From contig JAFTLK010000395.1 in the NCBI GenBank assembly GCA_017455975.1, positions 1 to 51,713 of the forward strand: a stretch of DNA of 51,713 nucleotides. Reading direction: 5' to 3'. The translations under genes and the position numbers were made by a program. The stretch comes from Clostridia bacterium (lineage in GTDB: Bacteria > Bacillota > Clostridia > Oscillospirales > CAG-272). Below are positions 4,984-51,713 of this stretch, piece by piece (positions within the stretch are counted from its first letter, which is position 1; the number at the start of each line of letters is the position of its first letter). Below the pieces are notes generated by a model. The model did not search any database and had not been told where the DNA came from. It saw only the letters and a program-made list of their open reading frames with translations.

Positions 4984-5005
4984 CCGCCGAGAAAGGAGAA
5001 CCGCC

Positions 5006-7003
5006 ATGTATTCAGGGCATGTATACAACAAAGTGGCAAACGAACCGATCGCGGGCTTACGTGTCAGCGACGGATTGAACATCGCCGTCACCGATGCTGA
5101 CGGTGCATTTTCCCTGCCCGGCTGGGAACGCGCGCATGTCATCGCGGTGCAGTGCCTGACCAACGCACACGATGACTGGTATGCGCTGATCGACGGTCAC
5201 GCGGGAGAATATGATTTTTACATTACCCCGGCGGAAGCACCCGCCGATCACCGCTTTTTCCATATCAGTGATTCGGAAATTGAAAACGTGGAAGAAGCCG
5301 GTATCTGGCTGCCGTTTGTCAAAAAGCAGATTACCGAACATCCTGCCGCATTTCTCATGCATACAGGCGACATCTGCCGCATTGAAGGTCTGGAATCGCA
5401 CTACATTGCGATGAATTACGACGTGCTCGGGATTCCCGTGCGCTACTGTCTTGGCAACCACGACTATGTTGATGACCGGTACGGTGACTATTCCTTTGAG
5501 CGGTATTACGGTCCGACATGGTATTCCTTTGATCTCGGAAATACGCATTACATCGTTCTGCCGATGCGCGGCGGCGATGCGCCGAGTGCCTATTCGCAGG
5601 ATGACATCAACCGCTGGATTTACAACGATGTGCGTGCAAAGGATCCGGACAAATCGCTGGTGCTGTTCTGTCATACCCACGCGCCCGACGAAGACACCTT
5701 CGTTTATGAGGTTGACGGTATCACCTTCGATCTGCGCGATTACGGACTGCTGGCATGGGTCTTCGGTCACTACCATATCAACTGGGTGACCGATCTCAGC
5801 GGGTACTATAACATCTGCACCTCACGTCCCGACTGCGGCGGCATCGACTCCTCGCCGACCGCGATCCGTTCCATTGAGGTCTTCGGCGATCATACGCTGA
5901 AGACAACCCTGCACTACAACGATCTGTCCAAGGCCGCACCGGCGGACGATGCCCTATGGGACACAAAGCTGCCAGGTCATGTGATGTACGCAAATCCCCT
6001 GCCGGATAACGGCAGACTGTACATCTCCACCTGCTGTGACGAATATCCCTTTGATGCGGGACTGTACTGTCTGAATCCCGAAAACGGCGATATTCTCTGG
6101 TCGTACAAGCCGTATGCCGGACTCAAAAATGTTCCCTCCATCGACGGCGGCATCATTTTCGCGCAGGATACCTTTGGTTGGGTATACGCGTTGAAGGCAG
6201 ATACGGGTGAGCTTGTCTGGAAACAGCTCGCTCCCGTCAACTGGGGACATCATACAGAAAACGGTGTTCTTGCAGCAGAGGGCAAGGTCTTTTGCGGATG
6301 CGGCAGAAAGGTCGTCACACTTTCCCAGAAGGACGGTTCTCTTCTGTGGATCGGCGAACCGAGCATTTCCTCAGAGGACTGCCCCGCACGCTTTGTGCTC
6401 GCCCATGACAACGGTCGTTCCGTGCTGCTTGCCTGCCGTCAGTGGCGGCACATTTACGCACTCGACGCTGAAACGGGAGAAACCCTCTGGCGCACCTCCG
6501 AGCCGCGATACTTCACGGGCACCCCGCTCGTTGTCGGCGACAAAATCTATCTGCACGCCAAGAACAACCTGTTCCGTCTGCGTCTGTCCGACGGTCAGAT
6601 CGATCAGAAATTCTCGCCCGACGAAACCGTCTGCCTCAATACCGCCATGCAGAGTGTCCTCCGTGACGGTGTGCTGTATACCGCAACAGCCGACCGCGGC
6701 ATGCTGGCATCCGACTTTGAAACCTTTGCAACAATCCGCAGCTATCCCGTCGGTCCGACCCTCTGCCCGATGGCAATGTACCGTCGGCACGATTCCCATG
6801 AATGTGAATCCGCACCGATTTTCTGCGATGACCGGATTCTGTTCACTTCACCCGACGGCTATCTGCACATCTATATGATTGAAACCGCCAAAGAAGTGCG
6901 GAAGATCTCGCTCGGCGCACCGTGCTATGTCGATCCCGTACAGGTCGGAAACACCGTCATCTGCGCCGACTTCTGCGGTCATGTCCGCGCTTATTCTCTG
7001 TAA
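5006..7003 (+). CDS. Calcineurin-like metallophosphoesterase fused to a PQQ-like beta-propeller
   Basis: N-terminal VSDG..AVTDADGAF segment. Metal motifs ISDSE, TGDI, GNHD, CHTH and GHYH. C-terminal repeats such as YALKADTGELVWK and YALDAETGETLWR. Confidence 0.85.
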   Translation: MYSGHVYNKVANEPIAGLRVSDGLNIAVTDADGAFSLPGWERAHVIAVQCLTNAHDDWYALIDGHAGEYDFYITPAEAPADHRFFHISDSEIENVEEAGIWLPFVKKQITEHPAAFLMHTGDICRIEGLESHYIAMNYDVLGIPVRYCLGNHDYVDDRYGDYSFERYYGPTWYSFDLGNTHYIVLPMRGGDAPSAYSQDDINRWIYNDVRAKDPDKSLVLFCHTHAPDEDTFVYEVDGITFDLRDYGLLAWVFGHYHINWVTDLSGYYNICTSRPDCGGIDSSPTAIRSIEVFGDHTLKTTLHYNDLSKAAPADDALWDTKLPGHVMYANPLPDNGRLYISTCCDEYPFDAGLYCLNPENGDILWSYKPYAGLKNVPSIDGGIIFAQDTFGWVYALKADTGELVWKQLAPVNWGHHTENGVLAAEGKVFCGCGRKVVTLSQKDGSLLWIGEPSISSEDCPARFVLAHDNGRSVLLACRQWRHIYALDAETGETLWRTSEPRYFTGTPLVVGDKIYLHAKNNLFRLRLSDGQIDQKFSPDETVCLNTAMQSVLRDGVLYTATADRGMLASDFETFATIRSYPVGPTLCPMAMYRRHDSHECESAPIFCDDRILFTSPDGYLHIYMIETAKEVRKISLGAPCYVDPVQVGNTVICADFCGHVRAYSL

Positions 7004-7021
7004 TCAGAAAGGACTCCGCCA

Positions 7022-8656
7022 ATGTTTACTTATCTTCATTGCTACATGCCCGAAACGTGGGAGGCACAGCTGCACGCAGGTCTGATCCGTCCCGGCGACG
7101 GCATCCGCTTCTGTCAATCCTTGGACATCGACGAGCCGCTGAAATTCAACAATTTAGCAGCTGTGGACGGCGAGCTTTACAACTATGTCCGCGAGCACCG
7201 CTGTCCTCTGTACATCGACCGTCTGCAGGGCGGCTGCTTCCTTGAGGAATATCCCTACGACATGGCACTGGTGAACGAATACCGCACCATGCTCGGCGAC
7301 AAATTCTGGGGCTTCCAGATGCACGAATGGGGCTCCAACCTGCGCTCGGACTTCGGGAAGATCACCTCCAACAACTGCCCGGAATGGACAGCGGAAGCCA
7401 TTGAGGCAACCATTCGCCGCGCGTATCCGTATGAGCACACCTTTGTGGAGGCGATGAATGTCGAGGAATACGCTTCCCTCGGCGGCGTGCCGAAGACCTA
7501 TGAAGAATATCTCTCTGTCATGCAGAACCTGTTTGCAAAGCGGCAGGCATATGTCGGCGGGGACCTGCTTCCCTGCGACAGCTATTTCCAGGCGCAGAAG
7601 ATGGAAATCGATGCAGGGGCAAAGCGTCTGATGCCCGAAATCGGCGCGCAGACCCCAAATACCCGCATTCAGGTCGCCTATGCGCGCGGCATGGCACGTG
7701 CGGCAGGGATTCCGTTCGGCACCTACTATGAGCCGTGGGGCGGCAGTCCGTTCTCTGCCTGCTGCTATCAGCGCGACGGAAAGAACGAATGGAACATCAC
7801 AGGCGATTCCTTCCCGTTCAAGACAGCCGGCGGCAACGGCGGTTCTTCCCGCTCGATGCAATGGCGGATGCATCTGTACTCCTACATGGCAGGTGCATCG
7901 TTTATGGCAGAGGAATGGGGTATGTGCAACACATTCTTCGATTGGGAGAATTTCGAGCTGACCCCCTACGGACAGACAAAGAAGGACTTCCTCGATTTCG
8001 TTGACCGATATCCCGCCATCGGGGAGCCGGTCATTCCGGTCGCGGTGGTTCTGCCAAAGGACATGCCCGTCCTTGATATGGCACTGTCGCCGAACACCTA
8101 CCTCGGCTATCCGGTCGAGGGACAGTTCGCAAAGAATCTTGCCGCGGTGGTTGATGCACTCAAGCATCTGTTTGTCGATTCCGCGCCGATGCTCGGCTCG
8201 GAGACAACCAGTCTGCGCAACTACATGACCCCCGATGCCATCGACATCATCCACGAGGACAGCCCGACCGTGTGGCAGTACCCGGTTCTGGTCGACTGCA
8301 CCGGCAATCCCGCATTTGCCGCAGAACACAAACGCTCCATCGAATCGGCACGCGACGCACGCATGATGATGCGCGAGCTGCTTCCCATCCGACAGATGGG
8401 CGGCGCATCGATGCAGATCACCCGAAACCGTGCAACCGGCGAGCAGTATGTACTGCTTATGAACAACAGCGGTGTTGTCCGCTCGGTTGCCGACGGCGAA
8501 ACGTTCCTGCCCGAGGGCGACATCTGTGTCGGTCTGACGCTGTCCGGCGGCAAAACGCTGTGCAAACTTGAAGGCAACGGCTCCGTTGTCATGGGGGATG
8601 CGGATATGTATCACGTCACGATTCCCTCCGGCGGATGGTTTTTCGCAAAATTCTGA
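7022..8656 (+). CDS. Hypothetical protein, possible TIM-barrel glycoside hydrolase
   Basis: 544-aa ORF with an AGAAAGG RBS inside the operon. WGFQMHEW and LMPEIG Glu motifs, TPYG and PVAVVLP resemble GH42-like architecture. No signal peptide. Confidence 0.55.
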   Translation: MFTYLHCYMPETWEAQLHAGLIRPGDGIRFCQSLDIDEPLKFNNLAAVDGELYNYVREHRCPLYIDRLQGGCFLEEYPYDMALVNEYRTMLGDKFWGFQMHEWGSNLRSDFGKITSNNCPEWTAEAIEATIRRAYPYEHTFVEAMNVEEYASLGGVPKTYEEYLSVMQNLFAKRQAYVGGDLLPCDSYFQAQKMEIDAGAKRLMPEIGAQTPNTRIQVAYARGMARAAGIPFGTYYEPWGGSPFSACCYQRDGKNEWNITGDSFPFKTAGGNGGSSRSMQWRMHLYSYMAGASFMAEEWGMCNTFFDWENFELTPYGQTKKDFLDFVDRYPAIGEPVIPVAVVLPKDMPVLDMALSPNTYLGYPVEGQFAKNLAAVVDALKHLFVDSAPMLGSETTSLRNYMTPDAIDIIHEDSPTVWQYPVLVDCTGNPAFAAEHKRSIESARDARMMMRELLPIRQMGGASMQITRNRATGEQYVLLMNNSGVVRSVADGETFLPEGDICVGLTLSGGKTLCKLEGNGSVVMGDADMYHVTIPSGGWFFAKF

Positions 8657-8689
8657 TGAATCTTTTATGCAGAAATCCGGAATTGGTGC

Positions 8690-8718
8690 TTTACAATTCC
8701 GGATTTTTATGTTATAAT
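8690..8718 (+). promoter_or_regulatory. Internal sigma-A promoter upstream of the second SBP
   Basis: TTTACA-17 nt-TATAAT with extended -10 TG. It overlaps a 13-bp inverted repeat (8673-8706). Confidence 0.7.
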
Positions 8719-8778
8719 GATAAAAAAGGATGCCATCAGTGAACGATGTATCATCAAATCATGTAAAGGAGAACACTC

Positions 8779-10275
8779 ATGAACAACCGTAAATCCATGT
8801 TTCGTACCGTATCCGGTCTGCTCGCCCTGCTGATGACCGGTTCCGTACTGCTGTCCTGCGGCTCCGATACCGGAACACCGGCAGAAACCACCGGAGGTGT
8901 CGATACCACGCCGGTTACTGAAGCTGTCACCGAAGCCGGGATTGAATATGTCGAGGATTCACTTCCTGACAATCTGAACTTTGACGGCCGTCAGTTCACC
9001 ATCTATGTCGCAAGCTACAATGAGTTTTTTGAAGGTCCGGAGGAATCGACCGGTGACGTCGTTGATGACGCTGTCATCGACCGCAACCGCGCCGTCGAAG
9101 AACGCCTGAACATCGAGTTGGAATATTACTTTGACGGCACTGCACAGTGGGATACCATCGCAGGCATCATTTCCAAGTTCATCATGGCAGGCGACACGAC
9201 CTATGACCTGTTCACAGGTCAGCAGTACGGCATCACGTCCCTGCTTGCCAACGGCGGTTTTGTCAATGTCTATGATCTGGAGCATCTCGACTTTACCAAG
9301 CCGTGGTGGAACAACCGTTACATGGACGAGCTTTCCATCGGTAAAGATGCCCGCTACTTCCTCGTCAGCGACTTCTTTATCTCGGCATTCCTTTCCACGC
9401 ACGTTGTCTTCTTCAACAAGACCATGTACGGCAAGCTGCATGAAGACCCCAACGAGCTCTACAACCTCGTTCTCGACGGCACCTGGACACTGGACAAGAT
9501 GGCACAGGTCGCAAAGGATGCATATATTGACTTGAACAACAACGGTCAGACCGATATCGAGGACCAGCTCGGCTATGTCACCTACCTCGCAGCGGCTTCC
9601 GTCGACCCGTTCATGTACCTGTCCGACATCGAATTTACACCGCACGACAGTGACGGCAATGTCTCCATCAATCTCATCAATGAACAGTGTGTCGATCTGA
9701 CAACCAAGATCGTCGAATATTTCCATCAGCCCGGCAGCTTATTCCAGACCGAAAACGGTGCCTGCAACCCGCAGTTTACCAACGGCAAGGCACAGTTCCT
9801 CGGTATCAACACCATCAGTGCTGCAAAGGCTTTCCGCGATATGAAAGATGACTTCAGCTTCCTGCCGTATCCGAAGCTGACAGAGGCACAGGAGCACTAT
9901 AACTGTGTTGTTGCGGACATTGCCGCGCCCGGTGCGGTTCCCGGAACGTCGCTGAATCTCGACATGGCAGGTGCCGTCATCGAAGCGCTGTCCTCCGAAT
10001 CCTACCGTTCTGTCCTTCCGACCTACTACGAAACTGCGCTGAAGATCAAGTATTCCCGCGATGATATCACCTCGCAGATCATCGACATCATCCACGATGC
10101 ATCCTATACAGACTTTTTGTATGCGTATTCCTCCAGCCTCGGCGGTATCGGCGTCATCATGCGTGACCTCGTCGCCAAAAACTCCACCGATTATATGTCA
10201 CTGGTCTCCAAGAAAGAAAAATCCGTCAACAAATTCCTCGAAAAGCTCATCACTGCTTATGAGGAACAGGAATAA
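8779..10275 (+). CDS. Extracellular solute-binding lipoprotein (paralog of 3499-4983)
   Basis: Lipobox VLLSC, AGDTTYD, KPWWN, GTWTLD, DLNNNG and FLPYPKL motifs. Confidence 0.85.
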   Translation: MNNRKSMFRTVSGLLALLMTGSVLLSCGSDTGTPAETTGGVDTTPVTEAVTEAGIEYVEDSLPDNLNFDGRQFTIYVASYNEFFEGPEESTGDVVDDAVIDRNRAVEERLNIELEYYFDGTAQWDTIAGIISKFIMAGDTTYDLFTGQQYGITSLLANGGFVNVYDLEHLDFTKPWWNNRYMDELSIGKDARYFLVSDFFISAFLSTHVVFFNKTMYGKLHEDPNELYNLVLDGTWTLDKMAQVAKDAYIDLNNNGQTDIEDQLGYVTYLAAASVDPFMYLSDIEFTPHDSDGNVSINLINEQCVDLTTKIVEYFHQPGSLFQTENGACNPQFTNGKAQFLGINTISAAKAFRDMKDDFSFLPYPKLTEAQEHYNCVVADIAAPGAVPGTSLNLDMAGAVIEALSSESYRSVLPTYYETALKIKYSRDDITSQIIDIIHDASYTDFLYAYSSSLGGIGVIMRDLVAKNSTDYMSLVSKKEKSVNKFLEKLITAYEEQE

Positions 10276-10278
10276 TCC

Positions 10279-10983
10279 ATGATGCACGCATTTCTTCTGA
10301 TCGGACAATCCAACATGGCAGGACGCGGATTGATTTCCGAAGCACATGACATCGATTCCTCACGCATCCGCATCTCCTCAAACGGGCATTGGACAGATAT
10401 GTTCCGACCAATCAACCGTGACCGCCCGTTTGCCGGGGTCAATCTTGCAGAAAGCTTTGCCGAAGCGTATGCAAAAAAGCACGACGTCGATGTCGGTCTG
10501 ATTACCTGCGCCGAGGGCAACTCCAAGCTCGATGATTGGATGCCGGGTGAAATCCTCTATGACAACGCCGTTTCCTGCTGCCGTCTGGCCGCGCGCACGG
10601 CAAAGATCGTCGGGGTGCTGTGGCATCAGGGGGAATGTGATGTGCCGGAGGCGCGCCGTCTGACCTATCGGGTGCGGTTTGAGCGTTTCATCACCGCTCT
10701 GCGCCGTGACGCAGGTCTTGGCGATATTCCGGTTCTCATCGGCGGACTGGGCGACTTCCTTGCCGACTGTACCCAAGGCAATCAGGAGGAAGACAAGACC
10801 TACTACCTGTTAAACGAGGTGTTTGAGGAAATCGCCGCCAACAATCCGAACATCGGCTTTGTTTCCGCGGTCGGACTCGGCGCAAACGATGACAACATTC
10901 ACTTCAATTCCGATGCACTTTACACCTTCGGTCTTCGGTATTTTGATGTGTTTGAGCAAATGACAGAAACTGCAACCAAATAA
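10279..10983 (+). CDS. Sialate O-acetylesterase / CE6 (SASA) carbohydrate esterase
   Basis: GQSNMAG (Ser nucleophile), WHQGECD and DNIHF (DxxH) motifs. No signal peptide. Confidence 0.88.
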   Translation: MMHAFLLIGQSNMAGRGLISEAHDIDSSRIRISSNGHWTDMFRPINRDRPFAGVNLAESFAEAYAKKHDVDVGLITCAEGNSKLDDWMPGEILYDNAVSCCRLAARTAKIVGVLWHQGECDVPEARRLTYRVRFERFITALRRDAGLGDIPVLIGGLGDFLADCTQGNQEEDKTYYLLNEVFEEIAANNPNIGFVSAVGLGANDDNIHFNSDALYTFGLRYFDVFEQMTETATK

Positions 10984-31018: not shown

Positions 31019-34120
<3,102 letters not shown>

Positions 34121-34197
34121 TCATTTTGATTCTGATATGAAACAGGCTGCCGCATTTCGGGGGAAACCGCAGCAGCCTGTAGCGTTACATTTCGGGA

Positions 34198-34923
34198 TCA
34201 GACAAGATTCTTGCGGTAGTCGCAGTTGTGCATCGGGGAACCGAAATCGTTCGGCGCTGCCCACTTGACACCGTTGTACAGGATCTTCTGGACATATTCA
34301 TTGTAGAAGGAACGGCATGCTTCGTGACCGGGCTGGAAGTAGAAGACCTTGCCGCGTCCGCGGTGGTAGGTACAGCCGGAACGGAAGACATAACCGTGTT
34401 CAAACCAGGAGATAAAGAGAAGCTCATCGGGCTGGGGAATCATGAAGGGTTCACCGTACATTTCTTCAATGCCCAGATCGACATGCTCGGGAATGCCTGC
34501 GGTGATCGGGTGAGACGGAAGCACATTCCACATGATCTCATGCTGATCGTCGCTCCAGAGCAGCTTGCCGGAGGTACCGACGATTTCACGGAACGGCTTG
34601 GACATATGCGCGGAGTGCATTGCAACAAAGCCCATACCGTCGTCGTAAACGCGCTTCTTGATTCTCTGTACCAGCGCATCATCGACATCGCCGTGTGCCA
34701 TATGACCCCACCACATGAGGACATCCGTATTGTTCAGAACATCGTCCGGCAGACCCTGATCAGGATCGTCCAGTGCCGCAATGCGCACCTCCAGATCGTC
34801 GTGCTGATCGAGGAAGTCCTTGACGCAGCCGTGAATGCCCTTGGGGTAGATCGCACGGATGGATTCCTCGGATTTTTCATGTCTGTATTCGTTCCAGACC
34901 GTAACGCGGATCTTGTTTGCCAT
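34198..34923 (-). CDS. ThuA-domain protein (trehalose utilisation family)
   Basis: VTVWNEYRHE, WWGHMAH, HSAHMSK, EEMYGEPF and FYFQPGHE motifs. Confidence 0.9.
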   Translation of the reverse strand: MANKIRVTVWNEYRHEKSEESIRAIYPKGIHGCVKDFLDQHDDLEVRIAALDDPDQGLPDDVLNNTDVLMWWGHMAHGDVDDALVQRIKKRVYDDGMGFVAMHSAHMSKPFREIVGTSGKLLWSDDQHEIMWNVLPSHPITAGIPEHVDLGIEEMYGEPFMIPQPDELLFISWFEHGYVFRSGCTYHRGRGKVFYFQPGHEACRSFYNEYVQKILYNGVKWAAPNDFGSPMHNCDYRKNLV

Positions 34924-41746: not shown

Positions 41747-42796
41747 TTAGCCGACGATACCGGATCTTTCGATACCCTGTACCAGGAATCTCTGGCCGAA
41801 CAGGTAAACGACGATCAGGGGTGCAATAACCAGCAGACCGCAAGTATTTCTGATAGCGGAGATATACAGGTCACCTGCCGCGAAGTCTGTTTCAAGAGAC
41901 TTGGGCGTCATGATGATATCGGGCATCAGTCTCATACCGGAGCTGGTGAAGAAGACGGTGGTATAGAAGTCATCCGTCCACTGCCAGCAGAATGCAAACA
42001 GGAAGATGGTAACCATCATCGGGATGGACAGCGGAATGATGATTCTGAAGAATGTCATCATCGTGCCGCAGCCGTCCAGGTAAGCGGATTCTTCAAGTTC
42101 GTCCGGGACACCGCGGTAGAACTGTCTCATCATGAAGACATACAGACCGTTTCTGTAAGCCAGACCGGTGATGGAGAGCAGAGCCAGCGGCCAGTAGGAG
42201 TTATTGAGGTTGATGGATGTGAAGTTGATCAGCTCAAGGCTTTCGGTAACACCGCCGCCCAGGAGGTTGAAGATACCGAGAATATCAAAGTATCTGAACT
42301 TCATGAACAGGGAGAGCTGCAGCGTCTGGTGCGGGATGACCATCGTCAGGACGACCAGTAAGAACAGGAGCATGGAGCCCTTGAACTTGAACTTTGCAAA
42401 ACCGTAACCGATCAGCGAGCAGATAAACGTCTGGGTGATACCGCAGAACAGAGACAGAGCAAGCGTATTGATGCAAGCTTCAAGGTACTTGGATTCTGCG
42501 ATGATCGCCTTATAGGTATCGAGGGTGGGGTACTTCGGAATGTACTTGACCGTGACGTCGATGAAGTCCTCGGGGCTCATGAAAGAACCCGTGATCTTCG
42601 AGAAGAACGGCATCAGGACGACATATGCGAGACCCAGAAGGATGATAAAGCGGAAGAACCACCATACAACACTGACGACAAAGTTGCCGGAAAGATACTT
42701 GATACGCATTCTTTCCTTTTTGGAGGTACGGTCGAATTCTACTCTGATTTTATCCTTAGTTTCTTTTGTGATCTTCGGTGCATTTTGAGCATTCAT
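41747..42796 (-). CDS. Carbohydrate ABC permease (MalG-type)
   Basis: EAA loop ESAYLDGCG and FAFCWQWTD. Confidence 0.93.
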   Translation of the reverse strand: MNAQNAPKITKETKDKIRVEFDRTSKKERMRIKYLSGNFVVSVVWWFFRFIILLGLAYVVLMPFFSKITGSFMSPEDFIDVTVKYIPKYPTLDTYKAIIAESKYLEACINTLALSLFCGITQTFICSLIGYGFAKFKFKGSMLLFLLVVLTMVIPHQTLQLSLFMKFRYFDILGIFNLLGGGVTESLELINFTSINLNNSYWPLALLSITGLAYRNGLYVFMMRQFYRGVPDELEESAYLDGCGTMMTFFRIIIPLSIPMMVTIFLFAFCWQWTDDFYTTVFFTSSGMRLMPDIIMTPKSLETDFAAGDLYISAIRNTCGLLVIAPLIVVYLFGQRFLVQGIERSGIVG

Positions 42797-42814
42797 CGTT
42801 AGTTCCTCCTTTCT

Positions 42815-43798
42815 TTATCTTTCCTGACGCTGATAGAAGGTGTACGCAGAGAGGACACCGGCAACAGCGGCAATGATCAGCATGACGATGATGAAGTACA
42901 TCCAGGACATAGCGGAGGACAGAACGTTACCGCTGGGCTGGTCATAAACCTGATCGATGTAGGTCATAACCTGGTTGTCTGCGGATGTAAAGGAGTCGAT
43001 AACCGTGTAGACCGTGTTGACCAGGATCATCGGGGAGATCATCGGGAGCGTGATCTTCCAGAAGGTTTCCCAAGTGGTCGCGCCGTCAATCTGGCAGGAC
43101 TCGTAAATTGCGGGGGAGATGGACTGCAGAGCCGCGAGGAAGATCAGCATCTGGACACCGGAGCGGTTAACGATATCATAGATATCGTTAACAAGTCCGA
43201 CGACGTAGTTCAGAAGTTCTTCACCGATGACCATGTTACGGAACAGTCTCTGGACGTCCATTGCGGAAATGATCTGTGCAGACTGTTCGGCACCACCGTC
43301 ACCCATATCCATGGAAGAAGTGTTTTCCATGTACTGGAGCATCTGGTTCTGCTGGTCGATCTTATCGATCAGACCGGTGGACAGAATAACCGGGATAAAG
43401 AAGATCGCACGGAATGCTGCACGACCGACCATCTTTTCGTTCAGCATGACAGCCATGAAGAGCGAGAAGATAACGATTGCGGGGATATCGAAGATCAGCT
43501 GCTGAATACCAGCAGTCAGCGTCTGAACGAACGTAGCATCGACGAACAGAGCTTCCTGATAGTTTTCAAGGCCGACCCATGTCAGACGGAAACCACCGCC
43601 GGTGACAATGTTGATTTTCGTAAAGGAGTACAGGATGGAGTCGTATACGATCGGAGCGTAAATGATTACGAAACCGATGATGAACGGAAGTACAAAGAGC
43701 CAACCTGCTCTGGATTTACGAGCGTCAAGAGAAGAGGCTTTTTTCTTCTTTTTCGGTGCTGCATTGATTTTCTGCGGCGCCTGTTGAACGTTATTCAT
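42815..43798 (-). CDS. Carbohydrate ABC permease (MalF-type)
   Basis: GWLFVLPFIIGF, VGLENY and EAA loop ESCQIDGAT. Confidence 0.93.
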   Translation of the reverse strand: MNNVQQAPQKINAAPKKKKKASSLDARKSRAGWLFVLPFIIGFVIIYAPIVYDSILYSFTKINIVTGGGFRLTWVGLENYQEALFVDATFVQTLTAGIQQLIFDIPAIVIFSLFMAVMLNEKMVGRAAFRAIFFIPVILSTGLIDKIDQQNQMLQYMENTSSMDMGDGGAEQSAQIISAMDVQRLFRNMVIGEELLNYVVGLVNDIYDIVNRSGVQMLIFLAALQSISPAIYESCQIDGATTWETFWKITLPMISPMILVNTVYTVIDSFTSADNQVMTYIDQVYDQPSGNVLSSAMSWMYFIIVMLIIAAVAGVLSAYTFYQRQER

Positions 43799-43816
43799 TC
43801 ATTACACCTCTCATTC

Positions 43817-46800
43817 TTAGTTGATTCTGATAAAGCTGAGCGCTTCGACCTGTTCGGTCTTGTCGTCAGTTGTATCTTCTTCGGTACCGTTATCATCAAC
43901 AGTTACAGTGACAGGGAAGTTGTTGTAGTTGAGGAAGAATACCGTACCGCCCTCGTATTCAACGCGGACAACCTTACCGTTATCAACAAGCGTTCTTGCG
44001 TTGATGTCGATAACTTCTTCTTCTTCCTGAACTTCGAGTTCTTCCTCTTCTTCACCTTCAGCTGCTTCGCCTTCAGCTGCTGCATCTTCATCAGCTGCAG
44101 CGTCTTCACCTTCAGCGTCTTCAGCACCTTCTTCGCCTTCTTCGTCCTTCTTACCGAAGAGTTCATCTGCTTCTGCTTTTTCACGTTCAAGTGCTTCAGC
44201 TTCTGCTTCTGCCTTCTTCTTTTCTTCGAGTTCAGCGAGGAGTCGATCGATTTCTTCCTGGAGTTCAGCCATTTCTTCATCGTTGAGGACACGGTGTGCT
44301 GCGACGAAGTCATGGTCGACGATCAGCTTGGTCTGGAGATCTGCGATGGCATCGTTCAGCTTGTTGTAAGAGCTGACAAGGTCTTCGTACCAGATATCGA
44401 AGTCGATGGAGTAATACTTGGAGAAGTCACCGTTGGTCTTGAGCTTTTCGGTGTTCTGATAGGACAGCTGGAAGTACATACCTGCGCCGTTTTCGATTGC
44501 CTTCAGGATCTGATAGTTCATATCACCGGCGTTGTTCATTGCCATACCGGCAAAGTTGACGTAGCCGTGGAGAACCATACCCATGAACGGAATCGTTTCG
44601 GAGGTGTTCAGGTATTCGGAGGAGTCAAGCGGAACATTGAGGATGTGGTTGACGTAAGGCAGGGAGTAATAGTTACCTGCATCGGTCATGACATCGCCGT
44701 ATTCTTCCTTGATTCTTGCGAGGAGTTCAACCGTGTAATCCTTGTTGTCTTCGCGGTTGTACGGATCCTTCTTATCGAAGTCGGAGTTGAGGTACTCACC
44801 GAGCGTGGAGACGGAAATACCGGTCGGATTGAGGGTCTTGTAGTTTTCGGTAAAGGTATCGTAGAAGTGCTCAAAGTATGCCGGGGTGATCGCGAGCATG
44901 TAAGATCTCATGTACTGCTGGTACAGCGGATCGTACTCTCTCATGTTTGCATACTTGGTGTTCATTGTCTTGACGAGGTGCTGACGTCTGTTCAGACCGT
45001 CGAAGATAGTGTTTTCAGCAGCATCTGCCCAAACAAAGTCGAAATCGGGGTAAACGCCGATATTCTTGGAGGAAGCGTAGGACAGGAAGTCCTTGAAGCC
45101 TTCTGCACCGCCGACGTTCTTTTCAACTTCGAGGTTGTAAGGAATGGTGGACCAAAGACCGCCGTTGAAGAAACCGGTCAGTCTGTAGTTGATGTTTTCG
45201 ATACCGTCAGCATTGAGCTGTTCGGTCATCGACTTGAGGTCTTCAAACGTGGTAAGGGGGGTCTGAACTTCTACAGGGAAGGAAAGAATCTTTTCCTGTG
45301 TCGGAGCAGTACCGAATGTTTCGATGTACAGCGGAATGTCTTCTTCGACATCGTCAGCAGTCAGTCTGGTCAGAATGCCCTTCTCTTCCATGTAATCTCT
45401 GCAGGCATTGACCATGCCCATGTAAGAGGTTTCATAGTAGTCATTGGAGCCGGGCATATCATTATCTTCAGCGTATTTCGGGTCATTGAGCATCGTGAAA
45501 CGAAGCGTGTAGTTGCCGGTATACTTACGCTTGGAGGTAACTGTCCACATTGCGGAGCCTGCACCGCTGATTGCGTCAGCAATGTCGTAGGTATCGCGCT
45601 GTCTGGGGGTAATGGTGGTCTTTACGTTGTCATACGTACAGGTCTTACCACCGGTTTCGGTAGAGATGCTTGCGAGTGCTTCGCCTTCTTCGATGATCGC
45701 AAAGAAGCCCTTGTTTTCATTGAAGTAAACTCTCTTGATTTCACGCTTCATTTCCCAGTCAACATATTCACCGAAGATGTTGTAGTAGGGTTCGACAGGC
45801 GTGTTGACGATCTCTTCTTCTACGACGGCGTAGTTTTCTACGACACCGTAAACAGGAAGTCTGACAGATTCCTGATGTTCGCCGGAGATCTCATAGAACG
45901 CGTAGTCCTGACCGTAAACCTTACCGGTGACAGTCTTACCGGACAGTTCTGCGAAATCTTCAAAACGGACGATCGTACCGGAACCGTCGGGAAGGAGCAG
46001 GTAACCGTCAAATTCATAGTTACCGCATCCGAAATAGGGGAGAATTTCAATGGAGGTCAGCTGATAAGCTGTGTCGTCAAAACGGAGACCGTTGACGGGG
46101 AATCTGACACGGAGAGTACCGTCTTCCAGATAGTATTCCAATGCCATCTTGAAGAGTGCGGGCGCCGTATTGGTACCTTCGTACTCTGTCATTTCATGGT
46201 CCTTGTCCAGTTCATCGTAGGTGTACAGCGGGCAGTGTTCGAGGATGTAACCTTCAATGAGGTTCAACTCACGGTCGGTTGCATACGGGTCGAAGACATA
46301 AACCGCCATCTTCTGCGTGATCGGGAAGGTTGCCATCATTTCCTTGACACCACGGTCAGTCAGAGAAGGATCGTCCGGGTCCTTGAGGGAGTAGAACGCA
46401 TTCATCTTCTTGAGGGCAAATTCGTTGCCCTGGAGATTTGCAAGGATCTGTTCCTCAAAACGGTTCTTTTCGATCTGTCTCGGAACCAGCTTACGGGTCT
46501 CTTCACGACCGATGGAGTACTCGACACGAACACCGTTCTTGATGTTCTTGATCTTGATCTGTTCTCTTTCCGCAGCTTCTTCAAAGCTGTAGTAGGTGGA
46601 TTCCTTATCGTTGTCAAGGTACTTGACAATGACCTGAGAAAGCAGCTTGGACTTAATGTCCTCAGAAGAACCCTTCGAGTACTGGTTGATGTTGAAAGGG
46701 TTGGAGAAAAGAGTCTGGCCGAAGAGATTGTCATGGTATGCAATCTCACCGGTGTAAGATTCTACATACAGAGAGTATCTGCCGTCAGCAGAAGTGACCA

Positions 46801-46978
46801 TTTCGGTCATCGCAGCAAGCTTTTCTTCTGCTGTTTCGTATACCTCCGTCATGTATTCGATGGTATTGGTTTCTTCTTCAGTTTCTTCCTCATCTGCGGC
46901 AGCAACCGGAAGAATTGCGAAGGTGCTGAAGATCATCAGGAATGCCAGTATTCCGGAAAGTAATCTGAATTTTTTCAT
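43817..46978 (-). CDS. Secreted DUF5696-type protein
   Basis: Start at ATG 46978 (AAGGAG RBS), Sec signal ending VAA-A. LLLPDGSG, RLPVYG, PLTTFEDL, GFFNGG, GVYPDFDF and ETIPFMGMVLHG motifs. 1053 aa. Confidence 0.75.
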   Translation of the reverse strand: MKKFRLLSGILAFLMIFSTFAILPVAAADEEETEEETNTIEYMTEVYETAEEKLAAMTEMVTSADGRYSLYVESYTGEIAYHDNLFGQTLFSNPFNINQYSKGSSEDIKSKLLSQVIVKYLDNDKESTYYSFEEAAEREQIKIKNIKNGVRVEYSIGREETRKLVPRQIEKNRFEEQILANLQGNEFALKKMNAFYSLKDPDDPSLTDRGVKEMMATFPITQKMAVYVFDPYATDRELNLIEGYILEHCPLYTYDELDKDHEMTEYEGTNTAPALFKMALEYYLEDGTLRVRFPVNGLRFDDTAYQLTSIEILPYFGCGNYEFDGYLLLPDGSGTIVRFEDFAELSGKTVTGKVYGQDYAFYEISGEHQESVRLPVYGVVENYAVVEEEIVNTPVEPYYNIFGEYVDWEMKREIKRVYFNENKGFFAIIEEGEALASISTETGGKTCTYDNVKTTITPRQRDTYDIADAISGAGSAMWTVTSKRKYTGNYTLRFTMLNDPKYAEDNDMPGSNDYYETSYMGMVNACRDYMEEKGILTRLTADDVEEDIPLYIETFGTAPTQEKILSFPVEVQTPLTTFEDLKSMTEQLNADGIENINYRLTGFFNGGLWSTIPYNLEVEKNVGGAEGFKDFLSYASSKNIGVYPDFDFVWADAAENTIFDGLNRRQHLVKTMNTKYANMREYDPLYQQYMRSYMLAITPAYFEHFYDTFTENYKTLNPTGISVSTLGEYLNSDFDKKDPYNREDNKDYTVELLARIKEEYGDVMTDAGNYYSLPYVNHILNVPLDSSEYLNTSETIPFMGMVLHGYVNFAGMAMNNAGDMNYQILKAIENGAGMYFQLSYQNTEKLKTNGDFSKYYSIDFDIWYEDLVSSYNKLNDAIADLQTKLIVDHDFVAAHRVLNDEEMAELQEEIDRLLAELEEKKKAEAEAEALEREKAEADELFGKKDEEGEEGAEDAEGEDAAADEDAAAEGEAAEGEEEEELEVQEEEEVIDINARTLVDNGKVVRVEYEGGTVFFLNYNNFPVTVTVDDNGTEEDTTDDKTEQVEALSFIRIN

Positions 46979-46995
46979 TTTTAACTCCTTTCCGA

Positions 46996-49134
46996 TTAAA
47001 TACGGTACGAAATTTCTACGACGATAGCGGTAACGAAGGACACGATGTTGTTTGCAAGACCGGAGAAGAGGACTGCGACGAACATGATGAACGCCATACC
47101 GACGATCGTGCAGACGCACATGATGAGGTTCTTACCGAAGGAATAGTCATGGGTGACCATGGATCCGAAGACGATGAGCAGACCGACCCAGATGAAGGAG
47201 AAGGTGAGCAGCAGGTTCAGGATGGAAACTTCGGCAATTGTCAGGAAGTGCGTGCAGATGGTGATGGGGAACATGAACAGCGGAATCGGAACGAGTGCGT
47301 AACCGGTCGCGATGAAGATATCCTTAAAGGAGCCTTCGCCGTCGAACAGGGTGGTCAGACACCAGTTCGCAGATGCCCACAGCAGGAACGGAACCATAAT
47401 GGAGGTAATGGTTGCGAGGATGTTCATGTAAGAGTTGTAGGGGTTAACGAGGTAGGAAGAACCGACGGACTTGTAGGTGAAGGCGAGGATCGTCATGCCG
47501 ATGTAGAAGAATGCACCGCGAATGGAACCGCGCTTTTCATGCTTCAGATCCCAGAAGCCGTCGAACGGATGGAAGATGACCCAGAAGCCGTACATGATTT
47601 CTTCCCAGAAGGTACGCTTACCAACCTTGGTGTGACCCTTGACGTTGATCTTGTATGCGTACTTGAAGAACAGGGAGTATGCGAGGATTGCAACGACGAC
47701 GACAACGATAACTACCATGACATACTTCTTGACCCAGTCCTGACGCCACATAGCAAATGCTGCGGAGTAGTTCTCGGTATCGTATGCGGACTTATAGTAG
47801 TCCATTGCTTCTTCGTAATCACCGGATCTGTAAAGAGCCTTACCGATACCGATGTACGCTTCGTCGAAGTTGGAGTTTCTCTGGAGAATGTTGGTCCAGT
47901 CTTCCTGAGAAAGGTCATACTGTCTTTCTCTGTTATGCTGGATGGCCGTCAGCAGAAGGTCGCCGTATTCGGTTCTCTTGTAAACCGTGACGTTGTTCGC
48001 GGTCTTGTCGAGGACGAGAATGTCATTGCCCTTGTATGCGATAGCCTGAATGGAGGAAAGGTTACCGGTCTGCATACCGGAGTCGCCGAAGATGAACAGG
48101 AGCTTACCTTCTTCATCGTAGGTATAGATCTTCTGTCTCTTTTCGTCGATGATGGACCAGGTACCCTGCGGGCCGAGTGCAACGTCGATGATCTTGGACG
48201 GACCGCCGATATCGTTGTTGGACGCGCCTGTGTTCATGACGGAAACTTCACCGCCGGGAGCGAAGAAGCCGTTTCTCTTCAGAATGTCGGAACCTGCGGT
48301 ATTCAGCTTCTTAACGGGAGCATTGCCTGCATCCTTGGAGGTAATTGCAGCCTGCTGTGCAGCTTCGTCGATGGAAGAGGTGGTAACGTAGATGAAGCCG
48401 TCTTCATCAATGGTGATGTTGTTAAATTCAGTGGAGACATACTGGGTGGAGGTTTCACGCTGCTCCTTGGTCTGAATTCTTCTCCACAGAATATCGATTG
48501 CGGAGATGTTGACCTGCTGAGCACCGATAAAGCCCTGGAATTCTCCGTCTGGAGCGATGGAGATGACACCCATGTAGGTGGTCGAAGAAACGATGTACAT
48601 TCTGCCCGCAGCATCTACCGCCAGTGCAACCGGCTTATAGATGGAGTTTTCCGGGAAGACGTCGGATCTGGGTTCTTCGATGGTTTCTACATATTCGCCT
48701 TCAAGGTCGAACAGAACGATACGGTTGTTATCGGTATCTGCAACATAGATGAATTCGTCGGTGACGAAGACACCCTGCGGGTTAGCCAAGGAGTCCGGGA
48801 CACCCTGATCGTTTGTAAATTCGCTGATTTCAAACGTGTACTGCAGGTAGCGGTTGCAGACAATGATTCTGTTGTTGGTAGCATCCGCAATGTAAACCTT
48901 ATTGTTCTTGTCAACAAACAGGTCACGGGGAGAGTCCATCGGCTTTGCAGCGTCAAGACCCATGGCTGCGGAGTCAACAATCATATCCGGAGTATATGCG
49001 TCGGGGGAAGCTGCGTACATACCGTCGATATCGTAGGTATAGGTGGAGTACGGCGTGATTGCCATAACAGACAGGGAGCCGAACACCATCAGACAAACCA
49101 TAACGAGGGTAATCAGTTTCATTAAGTTTTTCAT
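46996..49134 (-). CDS. NHL beta-propeller + TPR + Yip1-domain membrane protein
   Basis: Signal peptide; NHL repeats (PRDLFVD..VYIADATNNRI, PQGVFVT..IYVADTDNNRI); TPR (AYIGIGKALYRSGDYEEAMDYY); TM; Yip1-like HPFDGFWDLKHEKRGS plus several TMs. Confidence 0.85.
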   Translation of the reverse strand: MKNLMKLITLVMVCLMVFGSLSVMAITPYSTYTYDIDGMYAASPDAYTPDMIVDSAAMGLDAAKPMDSPRDLFVDKNNKVYIADATNNRIIVCNRYLQYTFEISEFTNDQGVPDSLANPQGVFVTDEFIYVADTDNNRIVLFDLEGEYVETIEEPRSDVFPENSIYKPVALAVDAAGRMYIVSSTTYMGVISIAPDGEFQGFIGAQQVNISAIDILWRRIQTKEQRETSTQYVSTEFNNITIDEDGFIYVTTSSIDEAAQQAAITSKDAGNAPVKKLNTAGSDILKRNGFFAPGGEVSVMNTGASNNDIGGPSKIIDVALGPQGTWSIIDEKRQKIYTYDEEGKLLFIFGDSGMQTGNLSSIQAIAYKGNDILVLDKTANNVTVYKRTEYGDLLLTAIQHNRERQYDLSQEDWTNILQRNSNFDEAYIGIGKALYRSGDYEEAMDYYKSAYDTENYSAAFAMWRQDWVKKYVMVVIVVVVVAILAYSLFFKYAYKINVKGHTKVGKRTFWEEIMYGFWVIFHPFDGFWDLKHEKRGSIRGAFFYIGMTILAFTYKSVGSSYLVNPYNSYMNILATITSIMVPFLLWASANWCLTTLFDGEGSFKDIFIATGYALVPIPLFMFPITICTHFLTIAEVSILNLLLTFSFIWVGLLIVFGSMVTHDYSFGKNLIMCVCTIVGMAFIMFVAVLFSGLANNIVSFVTAIVVEISYRI

Positions 49135-49151
49135 GTTTTACCCTCCTGTGA

Positions 49152-50027
49152 TTAGTCTTTCATACCGGACGAACCCATGGTTTCGATGATGTTGGACTGC
49201 GTGATGACGAAGACCGTGATCGGGACGATCATCATGATGACCGTAGAAGCGGCACCGGCACCTGCACGGACAATACCACCGGCAAGGATCTGGCTGATTG
49301 CGTAGTTGAACGTCTTGAGTTCCTCAGAATAGATGTAAATGGAAGTACCGGAGTTCCACAGACCCTGGAAGGAGTAAACGATCAGGGTCAGCCACGCGGG
49401 CTTAACCATCGGCATTGCGATCGTTAAGAAGGTTCTGAATTCGGATGCACCGTCGAGACGTGCGGATTCAAGAACTGCGTCGGAGACAGAGGATTCCATG
49501 AACTGCTTCATGAGGTACAGACCCAGCGTAGAAGCGAAGGTCGGGATGATGATTGCGAGGTAGGTGTCGACCCAACCGAGCGCGGTCATAACGATGAAGT
49601 TACAGATACCGGTAACGGTGGAGTTGAACATCAGGGAGAGGACGATTGTCTGGAAGAAGAATTCACGTCCGGGGAAGCGGATCTTTGCGAGTGCATAAGC
49701 TGCGAGAGAGGAGAGGATCAGGTTACCGGTCGTACCGACAACAGCGATGAGGATCGTGTTGAAGATATAACGGGAGAACGGGACCCAGGAGGTGCTCATC
49801 AGTCGGAAGAGGTCACCGAAGTTCTTGAGTGTCGGGTTGACAACGTAGAATCTCGGCGGGAAGATCCAAAGCTCATCGAGGGGCTTCAGTGCCTGCATGA
49901 TCGCGTAGACCATGGGGAGGAACATAAATGCACCGAGGAGGACGAGCATGACCGTGATACCGGCGTCACCGCCGGCAGAACGGTTGAGGACAACTTTATG
50001 ATTTCTTGTTCTTAACTTTTTGCTCAT
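49152..50027 (-). CDS. Carbohydrate ABC permease (MalG-type)
   Basis: PPRFYVVNPT, ESARLDGASE and QGLWN motifs. Confidence 0.93.
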   Translation of the reverse strand: MSKKLRTRNHKVVLNRSAGGDAGITVMLVLLGAFMFLPMVYAIMQALKPLDELWIFPPRFYVVNPTLKNFGDLFRLMSTSWVPFSRYIFNTILIAVVGTTGNLILSSLAAYALAKIRFPGREFFFQTIVLSLMFNSTVTGICNFIVMTALGWVDTYLAIIIPTFASTLGLYLMKQFMESSVSDAVLESARLDGASEFRTFLTIAMPMVKPAWLTLIVYSFQGLWNSGTSIYIYSEELKTFNYAISQILAGGIVRAGAGAASTVIMMIVPITVFVITQSNIIETMGSSGMKD

Positions 50028-50028
50028 A

Positions 50029-50991
50029 TTACTGTCCCACCTTCGAAAGCAATTTCTTGATAAGGGCGTTAGCGCCGACCATCATGAAGAACAGGATGGT
50101 AGCGATTGCGGAGGAGTAACCGACCTCAAAACGCTGTCCACCGTAGTCTTCGAGGTGGTGCATGATCGTATGTGCGGCGTAATCGACAGACGGGAAGCCG
50201 CAGAGTGCGGTAACGATACCGCCGAAACCGAAGGAACCGGTGATCGCCATGACTGCACCGAACATCAGCTGAGGCTTCATGACGGGCAGAGTGATGTACC
50301 AGAGCTCCTGCCATCTGTTCTTGATACCGTCAACGGCAGCTGCTTCGTAAAGGCTCTTATCGACGGTCTGGAGACCTGCGATAAAGGAAAGGAATGCAGT
50401 ACCGAGGGAGGTCCAGAGTGCGACGACGATACACAGCGGCATGACATAGTCGGCATTCTGGAAGAACTGAATCGGTTCAGCAATGAAACCAAGCTGGAGC
50501 AGCCAACCGTTGACCCAACCGTAGGAGTCACCGGAGAAGAGGGTTGCCCAAATGGTATAAACCTGACCGGAAATGGAGGGTGCGTAGAAGACCAGCGTTA
50601 CGAGTGCACGGATCTTCGGAGGGAGCTCGTTGATAAACCATGCAACGAGGAACGACAGCAGGTATGAAACAGGACCTGTGATCGCTGCGAAGATGAACGT
50701 ATTCTTAACTGCGAGCAGGAAGATATCGTCATCGAGGAACAGGCGGATGTAGTTGTCAAGGAAGACAAATACCGGAGGTTCCAGCATGTTAAATGTCGTG
50801 AAGCTGAGGACAATCGACAGAACAACGGGCAGAATCGTAAAGGTAAGGAAGAGAATGTAGAACGGTGCCAGCATGACGTAACCGATATAGTTTCTCTTCA
50901 TTTCCTTGATCGTCCATTGAGCCATCGTCATGTCCTTGCGCGATACCGGCTTTTTGGATTCAGGGGTTGCAGCCGCGGTATTCTGAGACAT
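50029..50991 (-). CDS. Carbohydrate ABC permease (MalF-type)
   Basis: FVFLDNY and EAAAVDG motifs. Start at ATG 50991 after AAGGAG. Confidence 0.93.
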   Translation of the reverse strand: MSQNTAAATPESKKPVSRKDMTMAQWTIKEMKRNYIGYVMLAPFYILFLTFTILPVVLSIVLSFTTFNMLEPPVFVFLDNYIRLFLDDDIFLLAVKNTFIFAAITGPVSYLLSFLVAWFINELPPKIRALVTLVFYAPSISGQVYTIWATLFSGDSYGWVNGWLLQLGFIAEPIQFFQNADYVMPLCIVVALWTSLGTAFLSFIAGLQTVDKSLYEAAAVDGIKNRWQELWYITLPVMKPQLMFGAVMAITGSFGFGGIVTALCGFPSVDYAAHTIMHHLEDYGGQRFEVGYSSAIATILFFMMVGANALIKKLLSKVGQ

Positions 50992-51059
50992 GTGATTCAC
51001 TCCTTATTTTTCAGATTTTTGAAAACGAATTTGTTTGTGCAATTCCTTTGTGTCGGTGA

Positions 51060-51713
51060 TTATTCAGCTTCACCGGTTTCAGCAGCTGCAGCTTCTTCTG
51101 CTCTGCTTGCAAGGGTTTCACCCATTTCAAGCGTATCCAGACCGAATTCTGCTCTCTTTCTGGAGATTTCCTTGTTGATGAAGATGTACTGTGCAAGCAT
51201 CGATTCAACAGGGTCCTTATTGTCGTTGTAAGCTGCGAGGAATGCGAAGTCGACATAACGGGTAATGATGTAAGAGCCAGGATACTCGGGCGTAGCTCTG
51301 AGCTTATTGAACTGTGCCATCAGCGTTTCGAGCTCGGTGGAGGACCAGTTCATGTTCATCATTGCTTCCTTGTTCGCGGTCGGATGAATCGTACCGTTAC
51401 CGAGGAGTGCCGTGTATTCGTTACCGTATCTGGACTGTGCATCAACAGATGTGATCCAGTCGATATACTTCCAAGCGTTTTCAGGATTCTTTGCATCAGC
51501 CATCATGACAAGACCGGAAACAGCAGTCGTTGCGGTGTTGTTGATGGTACCGTCTTCCTGCTCATAACCGGGCAGCGGCATCATAGCCCAAAGGCCTCTG
51601 ATTTCGGTTGCGAATGCGTTCAGCTGCGTATACATGGTGTAGTCAGCGATACCGAGCGGCATTTCACCGGTTCTGAAACGGTTAGCAAAGTCGTAGGTCA
51701 GCGGGAACTTGTA
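51060..51713 (-). CDS. Extracellular solute-binding protein (C-terminal part; 5' end outside the window)
   Basis: The frame is open to the window edge: YKFPLTYDFANRFRTGEMPLGIADY...APEIRG-like ATEIRGLW..PLPG...AWKYIDW...PEYPGSY. Confidence 0.88.
   Translation of the reverse strand, partial: YKFPLTYDFANRFRTGEMPLGIADYTMYTQLNAFATEIRGLWAMMPLPGYEQEDGTINNTATTAVSGLVMMADAKNPENAWKYIDWITSVDAQSRYGNEYTALLGNGTIHPTANKEAMMNMNWSSTELETLMAQFNKLRATPEYPGSYIITRYVDFAFLAAYNDNKDPVESMLAQYIFINKEISRKRAEFGLDTLEMGETLASRAEEAAAAETGEAE

Follow-up and report, generated by a model that had tools for sequence, protein, structure and literature searches.

A probable glycan capture-and-import operon of a gut Oscillospiraceae bacterium, one form of a seven-gene cassette conserved across Bacillota

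We analyzed a 51,713-nucleotide (nt) stretch of DNA, hereafter the window, which is the entire contig C366 (JAFTLK010000395.1) of a Clostridia bacterium metagenome-assembled genome (GCA_017455975.1; 4.2 Mb in 412 contigs, contamination estimate 4.9%), and focused on the minus-strand operon at positions 41747-51713. According to the open reading frame (ORF) list and Pfam searches, this region holds six complete genes and the 3' end of a seventh, encoding a substrate-binding protein (SBP; S), a pair of ATP-binding cassette (ABC) permeases (F1 and G1), a membrane protein with NHL, TPR and Yip1 domains (Y), an exported DUF5696 protein (D) and a second permease pair (F2 and G2), in this order and all on the minus strand:

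51060-51713, minus strand: S, giant substrate-binding protein of the XloE type, C-terminal 217 amino acids (aa) only; SBP_bac_1 domain; open at the window end
50029-51000, minus strand: F1, MalF/UgpA-like permease, 323 aa; BPD_transp_1 domain; best NCBIfam match UgpA
49152-50027, minus strand: G1, MalG/UgpE-like permease, 291 aa; BPD_transp_1 domain; UgpE 9e-23, MalG 1.5e-16
46996-49134, minus strand: Y, NHL/TPR/Yip1 membrane protein, 712 aa; Pfam Yip1, NHL and TPR; AlphaFold2 model
43817-46978, minus strand: D, exported DUF5696 protein, 1053 aa (from the ATG after the overlap); PF18952, 1.5e-136
42815-43798, minus strand: F2, MalF-like permease, 327 aa; BPD_transp_1 domain; EAA loop
41747-42796, minus strand: G2, MalG-like permease, 349 aa; BPD_transp_1 domain, 2.5e-14; EAA loop
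41708-41735, minus strand: intrinsic terminator closing the operon; 12-bp stem with 6 GC pairs and a 4-nt loop, then TTTGCTCTTT

The genes are separated, from S to G2, by gaps of 59, 1, 17, 17, 18 and 18 nt (the first being 68 nt if the ATG at 50991 is taken as the start of F1), and the hairpin at 41735-41708 (minus strand), the strongest terminator-like hairpin of the region, lies directly past the stop codon of G2. No ABC_tran domain was found by Pfam among the seven genes. The ORF list, Pfam and the hairpin scan thus agree with a preliminary description of the locus as a tight minus-strand unit with this gene order, a single terminator and no ATPase. Its count of seven genes also holds, with the proviso that the SBP gene is incomplete: as the window is a whole contig and the break falls inside S, only the tail of this gene is present. 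The D-F2 spacer (43799-43816) and the F2-G2 spacer (42797-42814) are both exactly 18 nt long and in frame, and the D, F2 and G2 ORFs form a single reading frame broken only by stop codons; these equal spacers may be a trace of translational coupling, or chance.

We then asked how constant this arrangement is. A scan for DUF5696 loci in one genome per species found at least 540, of which the best 80 were analyzed as close relatives. The order S-F1-G1-Y-D-F2-G2, on one strand, was found in every one of these loci long enough to show it, and persisted down to 42% identity in D. For a phylum-wide view, an even sample of 401 Bacillota genomes from 278 genera was used: DUF5696 occurred in 32 genomes (~8%) and 19 genera, and 20 DUF5696 regions (from ~17 genomes) were examined. 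The Y-D-F2-G2 core was contiguous in all 20, and the S-F1-G1 module lay upstream of it in 13, downstream in three and was not seen within ~9 kb in four. Across both sets, D was always directly upstream of the F2-G2 pair, with F2 always its immediate successor. The earlier suggestion that these genes constitute a fixed functional unit, rather than reassorting freely, is borne out by this invariance. Chance co-localization of the genes was considered and rejected on the synteny of the 80 close and 20 distant loci.

Through the DUF5696 protein of a complete genome, we reached a published counterpart of the cassette in Caldicellulosiruptor (Anaerocellum) bescii DSM 6725 (CP001393.1, 209-231 kb, Athe_0174-0181). 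There, the order is SBP (954 aa), F, G, an NHL/SGL/TPR/Yip1 protein (716 aa), a DUF5696 protein (733 aa), F, G and a second SBP (595 aa), followed by a GH43-CBM-GH43-CBM6 protein and then a CBM-GH10 protein (GH, glycoside hydrolase; CBM, carbohydrate-binding module). Rodionov et al. (2021; PMC8579813) list this operon, which opens the xylan degradation locus (XDL) with the eight genes up to axoE, as xloEFG-X-GH129-axoFGE-xynF-..., with Athe_0178, the orthologue of D, listed as GH129; in that study (Table 3 and accompanying data sets) all of its genes show higher expression on xylan and on Avicel and are placed in the XynR/AraR regulons, and XynR binds the Athe_0174 operator with a dissociation constant (Kd) of 161 nM (PMC12285236). 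The two loci have in common seven genes of identical domain architecture and order, a giant SBP of ~950-1000 aa and the lack of an ATPase gene. They differ in that C. bescii alone has a second SBP after G2 (AxoE, 595 aa) and secreted GH43/GH10 xylanases in the same operon under XynR/AraR control, whereas the operon of the window terminates after G2 and is flanked by housekeeping genes; moreover, D is 1053 aa long in the window, with a coiled-coil and an acidic insert, versus 733 aa in C. bescii, at ~25-27% identity. What accessory proteins of the Athe_0177/Athe_0178 type do is not discussed in PMC8579813 or PMC12285236, a literature search on DUF5696 found no paper, and searches for Yip1 with Caldicellulosiruptor, for Calkro/Calkr/COB47 locus tags and for Yip1/SBP/polysaccharide utilization locus (PUL) returned nothing relevant. 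The preliminary statement that the cassette lacks a mechanistic description therefore needs qualifying: it is right for the two accessory proteins, but the Caldicellulosiruptor version has been annotated and has RNA-seq and regulator-binding data.

The remainder of the S gene is found on contig C224, which overlaps the window end (window 51156-51713 versus C224:1-558) with 94% nt identity over 558 nt. An identity of only 94% between two contig ends inside one gene points to strain heterogeneity in the bin. The composite protein (window plus C224) is 1005 aa long, and its orthologue in L003, a locus 86% related to the window, is 1006 aa long. It comprises a signal peptide without a lipobox, two CBM35-like beta-sandwiches, a helical spacer and an SBP fold of the CUT1 class, with only residues ~600-880 matching SBP models. 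When the S family profile was searched against the PDB, the SBP part matched Lin1841, a sophoro-oligosaccharide SBP of Listeria (5ysb, E 2.6e-29), as well as other CUT1 oligosaccharide SBPs, and residues ~289-400 matched the CBM35 region of cycloisomaltooligosaccharide glucanotransferase (CITase; 5x7g, E 6.4e-9). Sub-threshold Pfam CBM_35 matches point to a putative second CBM35-like module at ~105-138. CBM35 modules typically bind plant glycans. The giant SBPs also stand apart in how they are exported: their signal peptides are of the Sec type and 35 of 37 family members lack a lipobox (present in 2/37), in contrast to the ordinary SBP-like ORFs of the same genome, 34 of 42 of which carry a lipobox-like motif.

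The fourth gene product, Y, matches the Pfam families Yip1 (8.5e-14), NHL (1.2e-10) and TPR, the Yip1 match (PF04893) scoring 52.2 bits against a cut-off of 28.6 and covering profile positions 3-172 of 173. Its AlphaFold2 model (predicted local distance difference test (pLDDT) 86) comprises a signal peptide, a six-bladed NHL propeller (~31-387) and TPR-like helices (~389-470), followed by one long transmembrane helix (~472-502) and a five-helix Yip1 membrane domain (~509-711). From the order of these segments in the model, we infer that the propeller and the TPR helices lie outside the cell. In Foldseek searches, the propeller resembled the NHL domains of TRIM71, Thin and Brat (target template-modelling (TM) scores 0.75-0.80), and the sequence profile of Y matched TRIM71 and the Pizza proteins derived from the PknD sensor (E 1e-56 to 1e-25). 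The sole enzymatic propeller among the matches, virginiamycin B lyase, was a poorer likeness (target TM score 0.57), i.e., NHL domains that bind ligands or partners are the better matches. In seven of the 20 distant loci, the NHL/TPR and Yip1 parts of Y are encoded by two separate genes, and elsewhere the two are fused, a pattern which indicates that the two halves work together. A precedent for a Yip1 protein encoded with an ABC transporter and needed for its assembly or activity is YknW, an assembly factor of YknWXYZ in Bacillus subtilis (PMC4887032); however, that system includes a membrane fusion protein and its YknYZ part is an exporter of the MacB type, and YknW, unlike Y, has no propeller or TPR ectodomain.

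The fifth gene product, D, is a clear member of DUF5696 (PF18952; E 1.5e-136, 456.9 bits against a cut-off of 25.6). Its AlphaFold2 model (pLDDT 78, predicted TM score (pTM) 0.74) shows an N-terminal beta domain, a beta-sandwich with a PDGSG motif, a (beta/alpha)8 barrel (~545-880), a coiled-coil and acidic low-complexity insert (~900-990) and a conserved C-terminal beta unit. The N-terminus is a hydrophobic signal peptide or signal anchor without a lipobox, and a lipobox-like match was seen in two of the 27 D-family N-termini inspected. The earlier description of this protein as anchor-less is uncertain, as the N-terminal segment may itself be a signal anchor.

In Foldseek searches, the D model matched the 3,6-anhydro-D-galactosidase ZgGH129 (5opq, E 4.4e-25, target TM score 0.67), the GH129 alpha-N-acetylgalactosaminidase NagBb (5wzn, E ~1e-17) and GH101 (E ~1e-13), with weaker matches to GH36 and GH31. 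A profile built from close-relative DUF5696 sequences found no match in the PDB; a profile of 46 diverse members matched ZgGH129 (8rzg/5opq, E 5e-11) and NagBb (5wzn, E 4.9e-9). The significance of this profile match shows that DUF5696 and GH129 are related by homology, and not merely alike in shape. In the profile alignment, the two correspond over the N-terminal domains and the initial barrel strands; both families also have the C-terminal beta unit in common, and the overall multi-domain fold is that of GH129 (ZgGH129/DagB and NagBb) and GH101. The DUF5696 motif PDGSG has no counterpart in the aligned ZgGH129 sequence. The Pfam GH129 model gave no match to D. With hhalign, the C-terminal tail alone aligned between DUF5696 and Firmicute PF11308 proteins, which themselves barely match the solved GH129 structures. 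By modelled fold and profile sequence, then, D is a homologue of GH129/GH101, which agrees with the early guess of a GH-like barrel. Two candidate catalytic residues can be named by strand position only: D733, at the end of barrel strand 4 (conserved in 62/65 sequences), and D766, 33 residues further on at the end of strand 5 (aspartate or glutamate in 40/45 close relatives). D785 is subfamily-specific, and E829 and the PDGSG loop are found family-wide. The solved GH129 and GH101 enzymes are described only as glycosidases, and we know of no GH129/GH101 enzyme encoded inside a transporter cassette.

Several relatives of D deserve mention here. A paralogue in the same genome, a 620-aa protein without a signal peptide, encoded outside any twin-importer cassette at C365:7034-8950 (minus strand), matches both DUF5696 (E 4e-15) and, just sub-threshold, Glyco_hydro_101 (E 3e-5), and carries a PLLNLVYHD motif resembling one in ZgGH129; judging by these matches, it is a putative cytoplasmic bridge between DUF5696 and GH101/GH129. 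A weak DUF5696-like match with an internal TAA lies at C376:23099-24400 (plus strand; E 2.9e-38), and two ORFs at C341:4294-6887 (plus strand) are weakly DUF5696-like, the common region being only ~144-245 of D. Among the close loci, some relatives (L082:9986-15787, L073, L026, L035) show enlarged proteins, with D at 1450-1933 aa and S at up to 1288 aa. The extra parts have no Pfam match, and the accessory proteins thus carry lineage-specific extensions.

All four permeases contain BPD_transp_1, with best NCBIfam matches to UgpA, UgpE, MalG and MalF, and all keep the EAA-x2-DG coupling loop (YEAAAVDG in F1, ESARLDG in G1, YESCQIDG in F2 and ESAYLDG in G2). F2 has a ~70-aa loop inserted ahead of its conserved core, and BPD_transp_1 covers only its residues 217-326. 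The features of CUT1 importers (TC 3.A.1.1) are present, namely MalF/MalG-type permease pairs with an EAA loop and a sugar-class SBP, the latter occurring once for two pairs. An ATPase with ABC_tran, OB_MalK and TOBE_2 domains is encoded on contig C177 of the same genome, and C119 carries a second candidate. No CUT1 transporter of C. bescii has a local ATPase, and all depend on MsmK (Athe_1803) (PMC12096829, PMC8579813). With this precedent and the MalK/MsmX-type ATPase on C177, the absence of an ATPase gene is ordinary for CUT1 systems, which share MsmK or MsmX. By analogy with MsmK in C. bescii, we infer that a shared, trans-encoded ATPase powers both permease pairs. In its MalF/MalG permeases with EAA loops, oligosaccharide-class SBP and predicted trans ATPase, the unit resembles CUT1 importers with a common ATPase (MalEFGK2, MsmEFGK/MsmX, MsmK); unlike ordinary CUT1 systems, it has two permease pairs, a single CBM-extended, non-lipoprotein giant SBP and two conserved envelope proteins encoded between the pairs.

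As for its surroundings, VanY follows the terminator past G2, and the recurrent neighbors of the 80 close loci are a NifS-like aminotransferase, VanY, AlaRS, an rRNA methylase, a ROK kinase, POR and CPSase, with MnmA also among the housekeeping genes flanking the operon. At least 11 of the 20 distant loci, as well as C. bescii, have ordinary SBPs beside the cassette; among the 80 close relatives this is true of one alone, and in the window there is none beside it. Having no flanking SBP, carbohydrate-active enzyme (CAZyme) or regulator, the cassette in this lineage forms a self-contained unit, whose seven genes provide two permease pairs but a single giant SBP. Its expression could be followed in gut metatranscriptomes: in runs X11 and X16, RNA-derived contigs tile 41.7-51.7 kb at 95-100% identity, showing that the operon is transcribed in vivo, while the 3.7 kb downstream of the terminator have almost no coverage and the contigs stop near the terminator. 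Runs X4 and X5, labelled 'TRANSCRIPTOMIC WGS', were discounted as expression evidence, as their long contigs cover the operon and its flanks evenly, in a DNA-like manner.

Taken together, these results lead us to read the unit as an operon of seven genes for glycan capture and import, representing in Oscillospiraceae a cassette that is conserved across Bacillota, with a probability of about 0.7. A function in glycan capture and import is well supported; the orthologous Caldicellulosiruptor cassette responds to xylan. In the mechanism we propose, the CBM-like domains of S would hold a polymeric or oligomeric glycan, and S would deliver an oligosaccharide to F1G1; D, with its GH129-like fold, would trim or remodel the captured glycan at the membrane surface, and the product would enter via F2G2. 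Y would keep the exported, non-lipoprotein S and D at the membrane beside the permeases, and the common trans-encoded ATPase would drive both F1G1 and F2G2. The best indirect argument for such tethering is that, in a monoderm, S and D could remain at the surface only through a signal anchor that is not cleaved off or through a partner. Y probably organizes or retains the exported parts, and a tethering role for the non-lipoprotein S and D in particular is plausible.

Several observations weigh against this reading. The catalytic strands of D could not be aligned to GH129, as the alignments end before them, and its acid/base position (D766) is aspartate or glutamate in only seven of 20 distant members, from which D may be non-catalytic in many lineages. 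For neither Y nor D did the literature search find enzymatic, binding or interaction data from any organism. F2G2, which as a canonical type I importer would require an SBP, has none adjacent in the window and one nearby in only one of the 80 close loci. No CAZyme was found among the operon's flanking genes in the window or the recurrent neighbors of the 80 close loci, and the genes on both flanks yielded no regulator domain, i.e., the local regulator expected of a PUL is absent here; with housekeeping flanks of this kind, the link to a dietary polysaccharide is one of analogy only. Finally, the RNA evidence consists of assembled contigs from related strains (95-99% identity), and the empty flank is the weaker part of it, as strain differences could produce it.

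How closely the parts cooperate is a separate question. The preliminary description had compared the unit with the SusCD utilisome of Bacteroidota and its accessory proteins, with which it shares, conceptually, a surface glycan binder, a surface enzyme and a transporter encoded together; beyond this functional likeness the analogy does not extend, as no TonB-dependent transporter or SusD-like lipoprotein domain was found by Pfam in the seven genes, and the organism is a monoderm importing through an inner-membrane ABC system. A supercomplex akin to a utilisome, with Y as a stoichiometric scaffold joining both permease pairs, S and D such that capture, cleavage and import are channelled, would fit the strict co-linearity of all seven genes and their very tight spacing (including the in-frame 18-nt D-F2 and F2-G2 spacers), the predicted interaction modules of Y (propeller and TPR) outside the cell on a multi-pass membrane domain, the export of S and D without lipid anchors, unlike the ordinary SBPs of the same genome, and the modulation of ABC transporter assembly by the Yip1 protein YknW. 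Yet the S-F1-G1 module may stand on either side of the core and was not seen near it in 4/20 loci, which fits a looser association, and N-terminal signal anchors alone could retain S and D. We consider such a supercomplex possible but doubtful. The related proposal that Y is the membrane hub of an unrecognized monoderm glycan-import machine, tethering S and D over the two permease pairs and coupling capture, cleavage and the import of two product classes, strikes us as rather unlikely.

A different role for D, as a pseudo-glycosidase serving as substrate receptor for F2G2 in place of the second SBP missing from this lineage, is suggested by its invariable position directly before F2-G2, where D-F2-G2 mirrors S-F1-G1, by the lack of a second SBP beside the cassette here and by the loss of the acid/base-position residue in most distant family members. 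Most other lineages, however, including C. bescii with AxoE, have flanking ordinary SBPs, so that F2G2 would normally have an SBP of its own, and the candidate catalytic pair D733/D766 is retained in the subfamily of the window. Type I ABC importers gated by anything but an SBP fold are not known to us, which counts further against this role; we judge it quite improbable. As regards the substrate, the cassette could conceivably act on glycans of the cell's own envelope, in their turnover or recycling, or on host mucin-type glycans, instead of dietary fiber: its CAZyme-free flanks (NifS, MnmA, VanY, AlaRS, rRNA methylase and similar) recur across relatives, and the characterized GH129/GH101 enzymes act on the alpha-GalNAc of mucin O-glycans or on alpha-linked anhydro-galactose (PMC8106489 and structure descriptions). 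Against this stands that the sole expression data for an orthologous cassette point to xylan, and a plant polysaccharide would also be a fitting ligand for the CBM35-like domains of S; we deem a non-dietary substrate of this kind very unlikely.

The C. bescii counterpart was already annotated and known to be xylan-induced; what is new here is its recognition as the counterpart of this cassette, the homology between DUF5696 and GH129 at sequence level, the difference in lipobox content of giant and ordinary SBPs, a form of the cassette with one SBP and no CAZymes, and the transcription of the operon in vivo. Carriers of the cassette include gut fiber-degraders and biotechnologically used thermophiles, and two of its seven core proteins, without known function, sit mid-locus in an established model of xylan utilization. 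The link from the gut form, which comes from an uncultured bacterium, to the C. bescii XDL brings the question within reach of experiment in a species that is open to genetics and has expression and regulator data. Should the accessory proteins hold together or couple the enzyme, the binding protein and the permeases, Gram-positive oligosaccharide uptake would have to be modelled and engineered differently, and a machine with Y as its hub, if real, would be a Gram-positive functional counterpart of the Bacteroidota utilisome; if they do not tether, the cassette would amount to two co-regulated CUT1 importers and a surface enzyme.

Elsewhere in the window, a GH2 beta-galactosidase (1018 aa) and a ThuA-like protein are encoded at 31019-34923, ~7 kb downstream of the operon, with PurL, a MiaB-like radical SAM enzyme and VanY encoded in between. 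No other CAZyme-type genes were found in the part of the contig that was scanned, and these two are not conserved neighbors of the cassette. Further away, at 3499-10983 (plus strand), lies a run that includes ORFs of 494, 544 and 498 aa without a Pfam match, the first of them weakly SBP-like (phmmer E 2.6e-6), together with a metallophosphatase/PQQ-propeller protein (5006-7003) and a SASA-type sialate O-acetylesterase (10279-10983).

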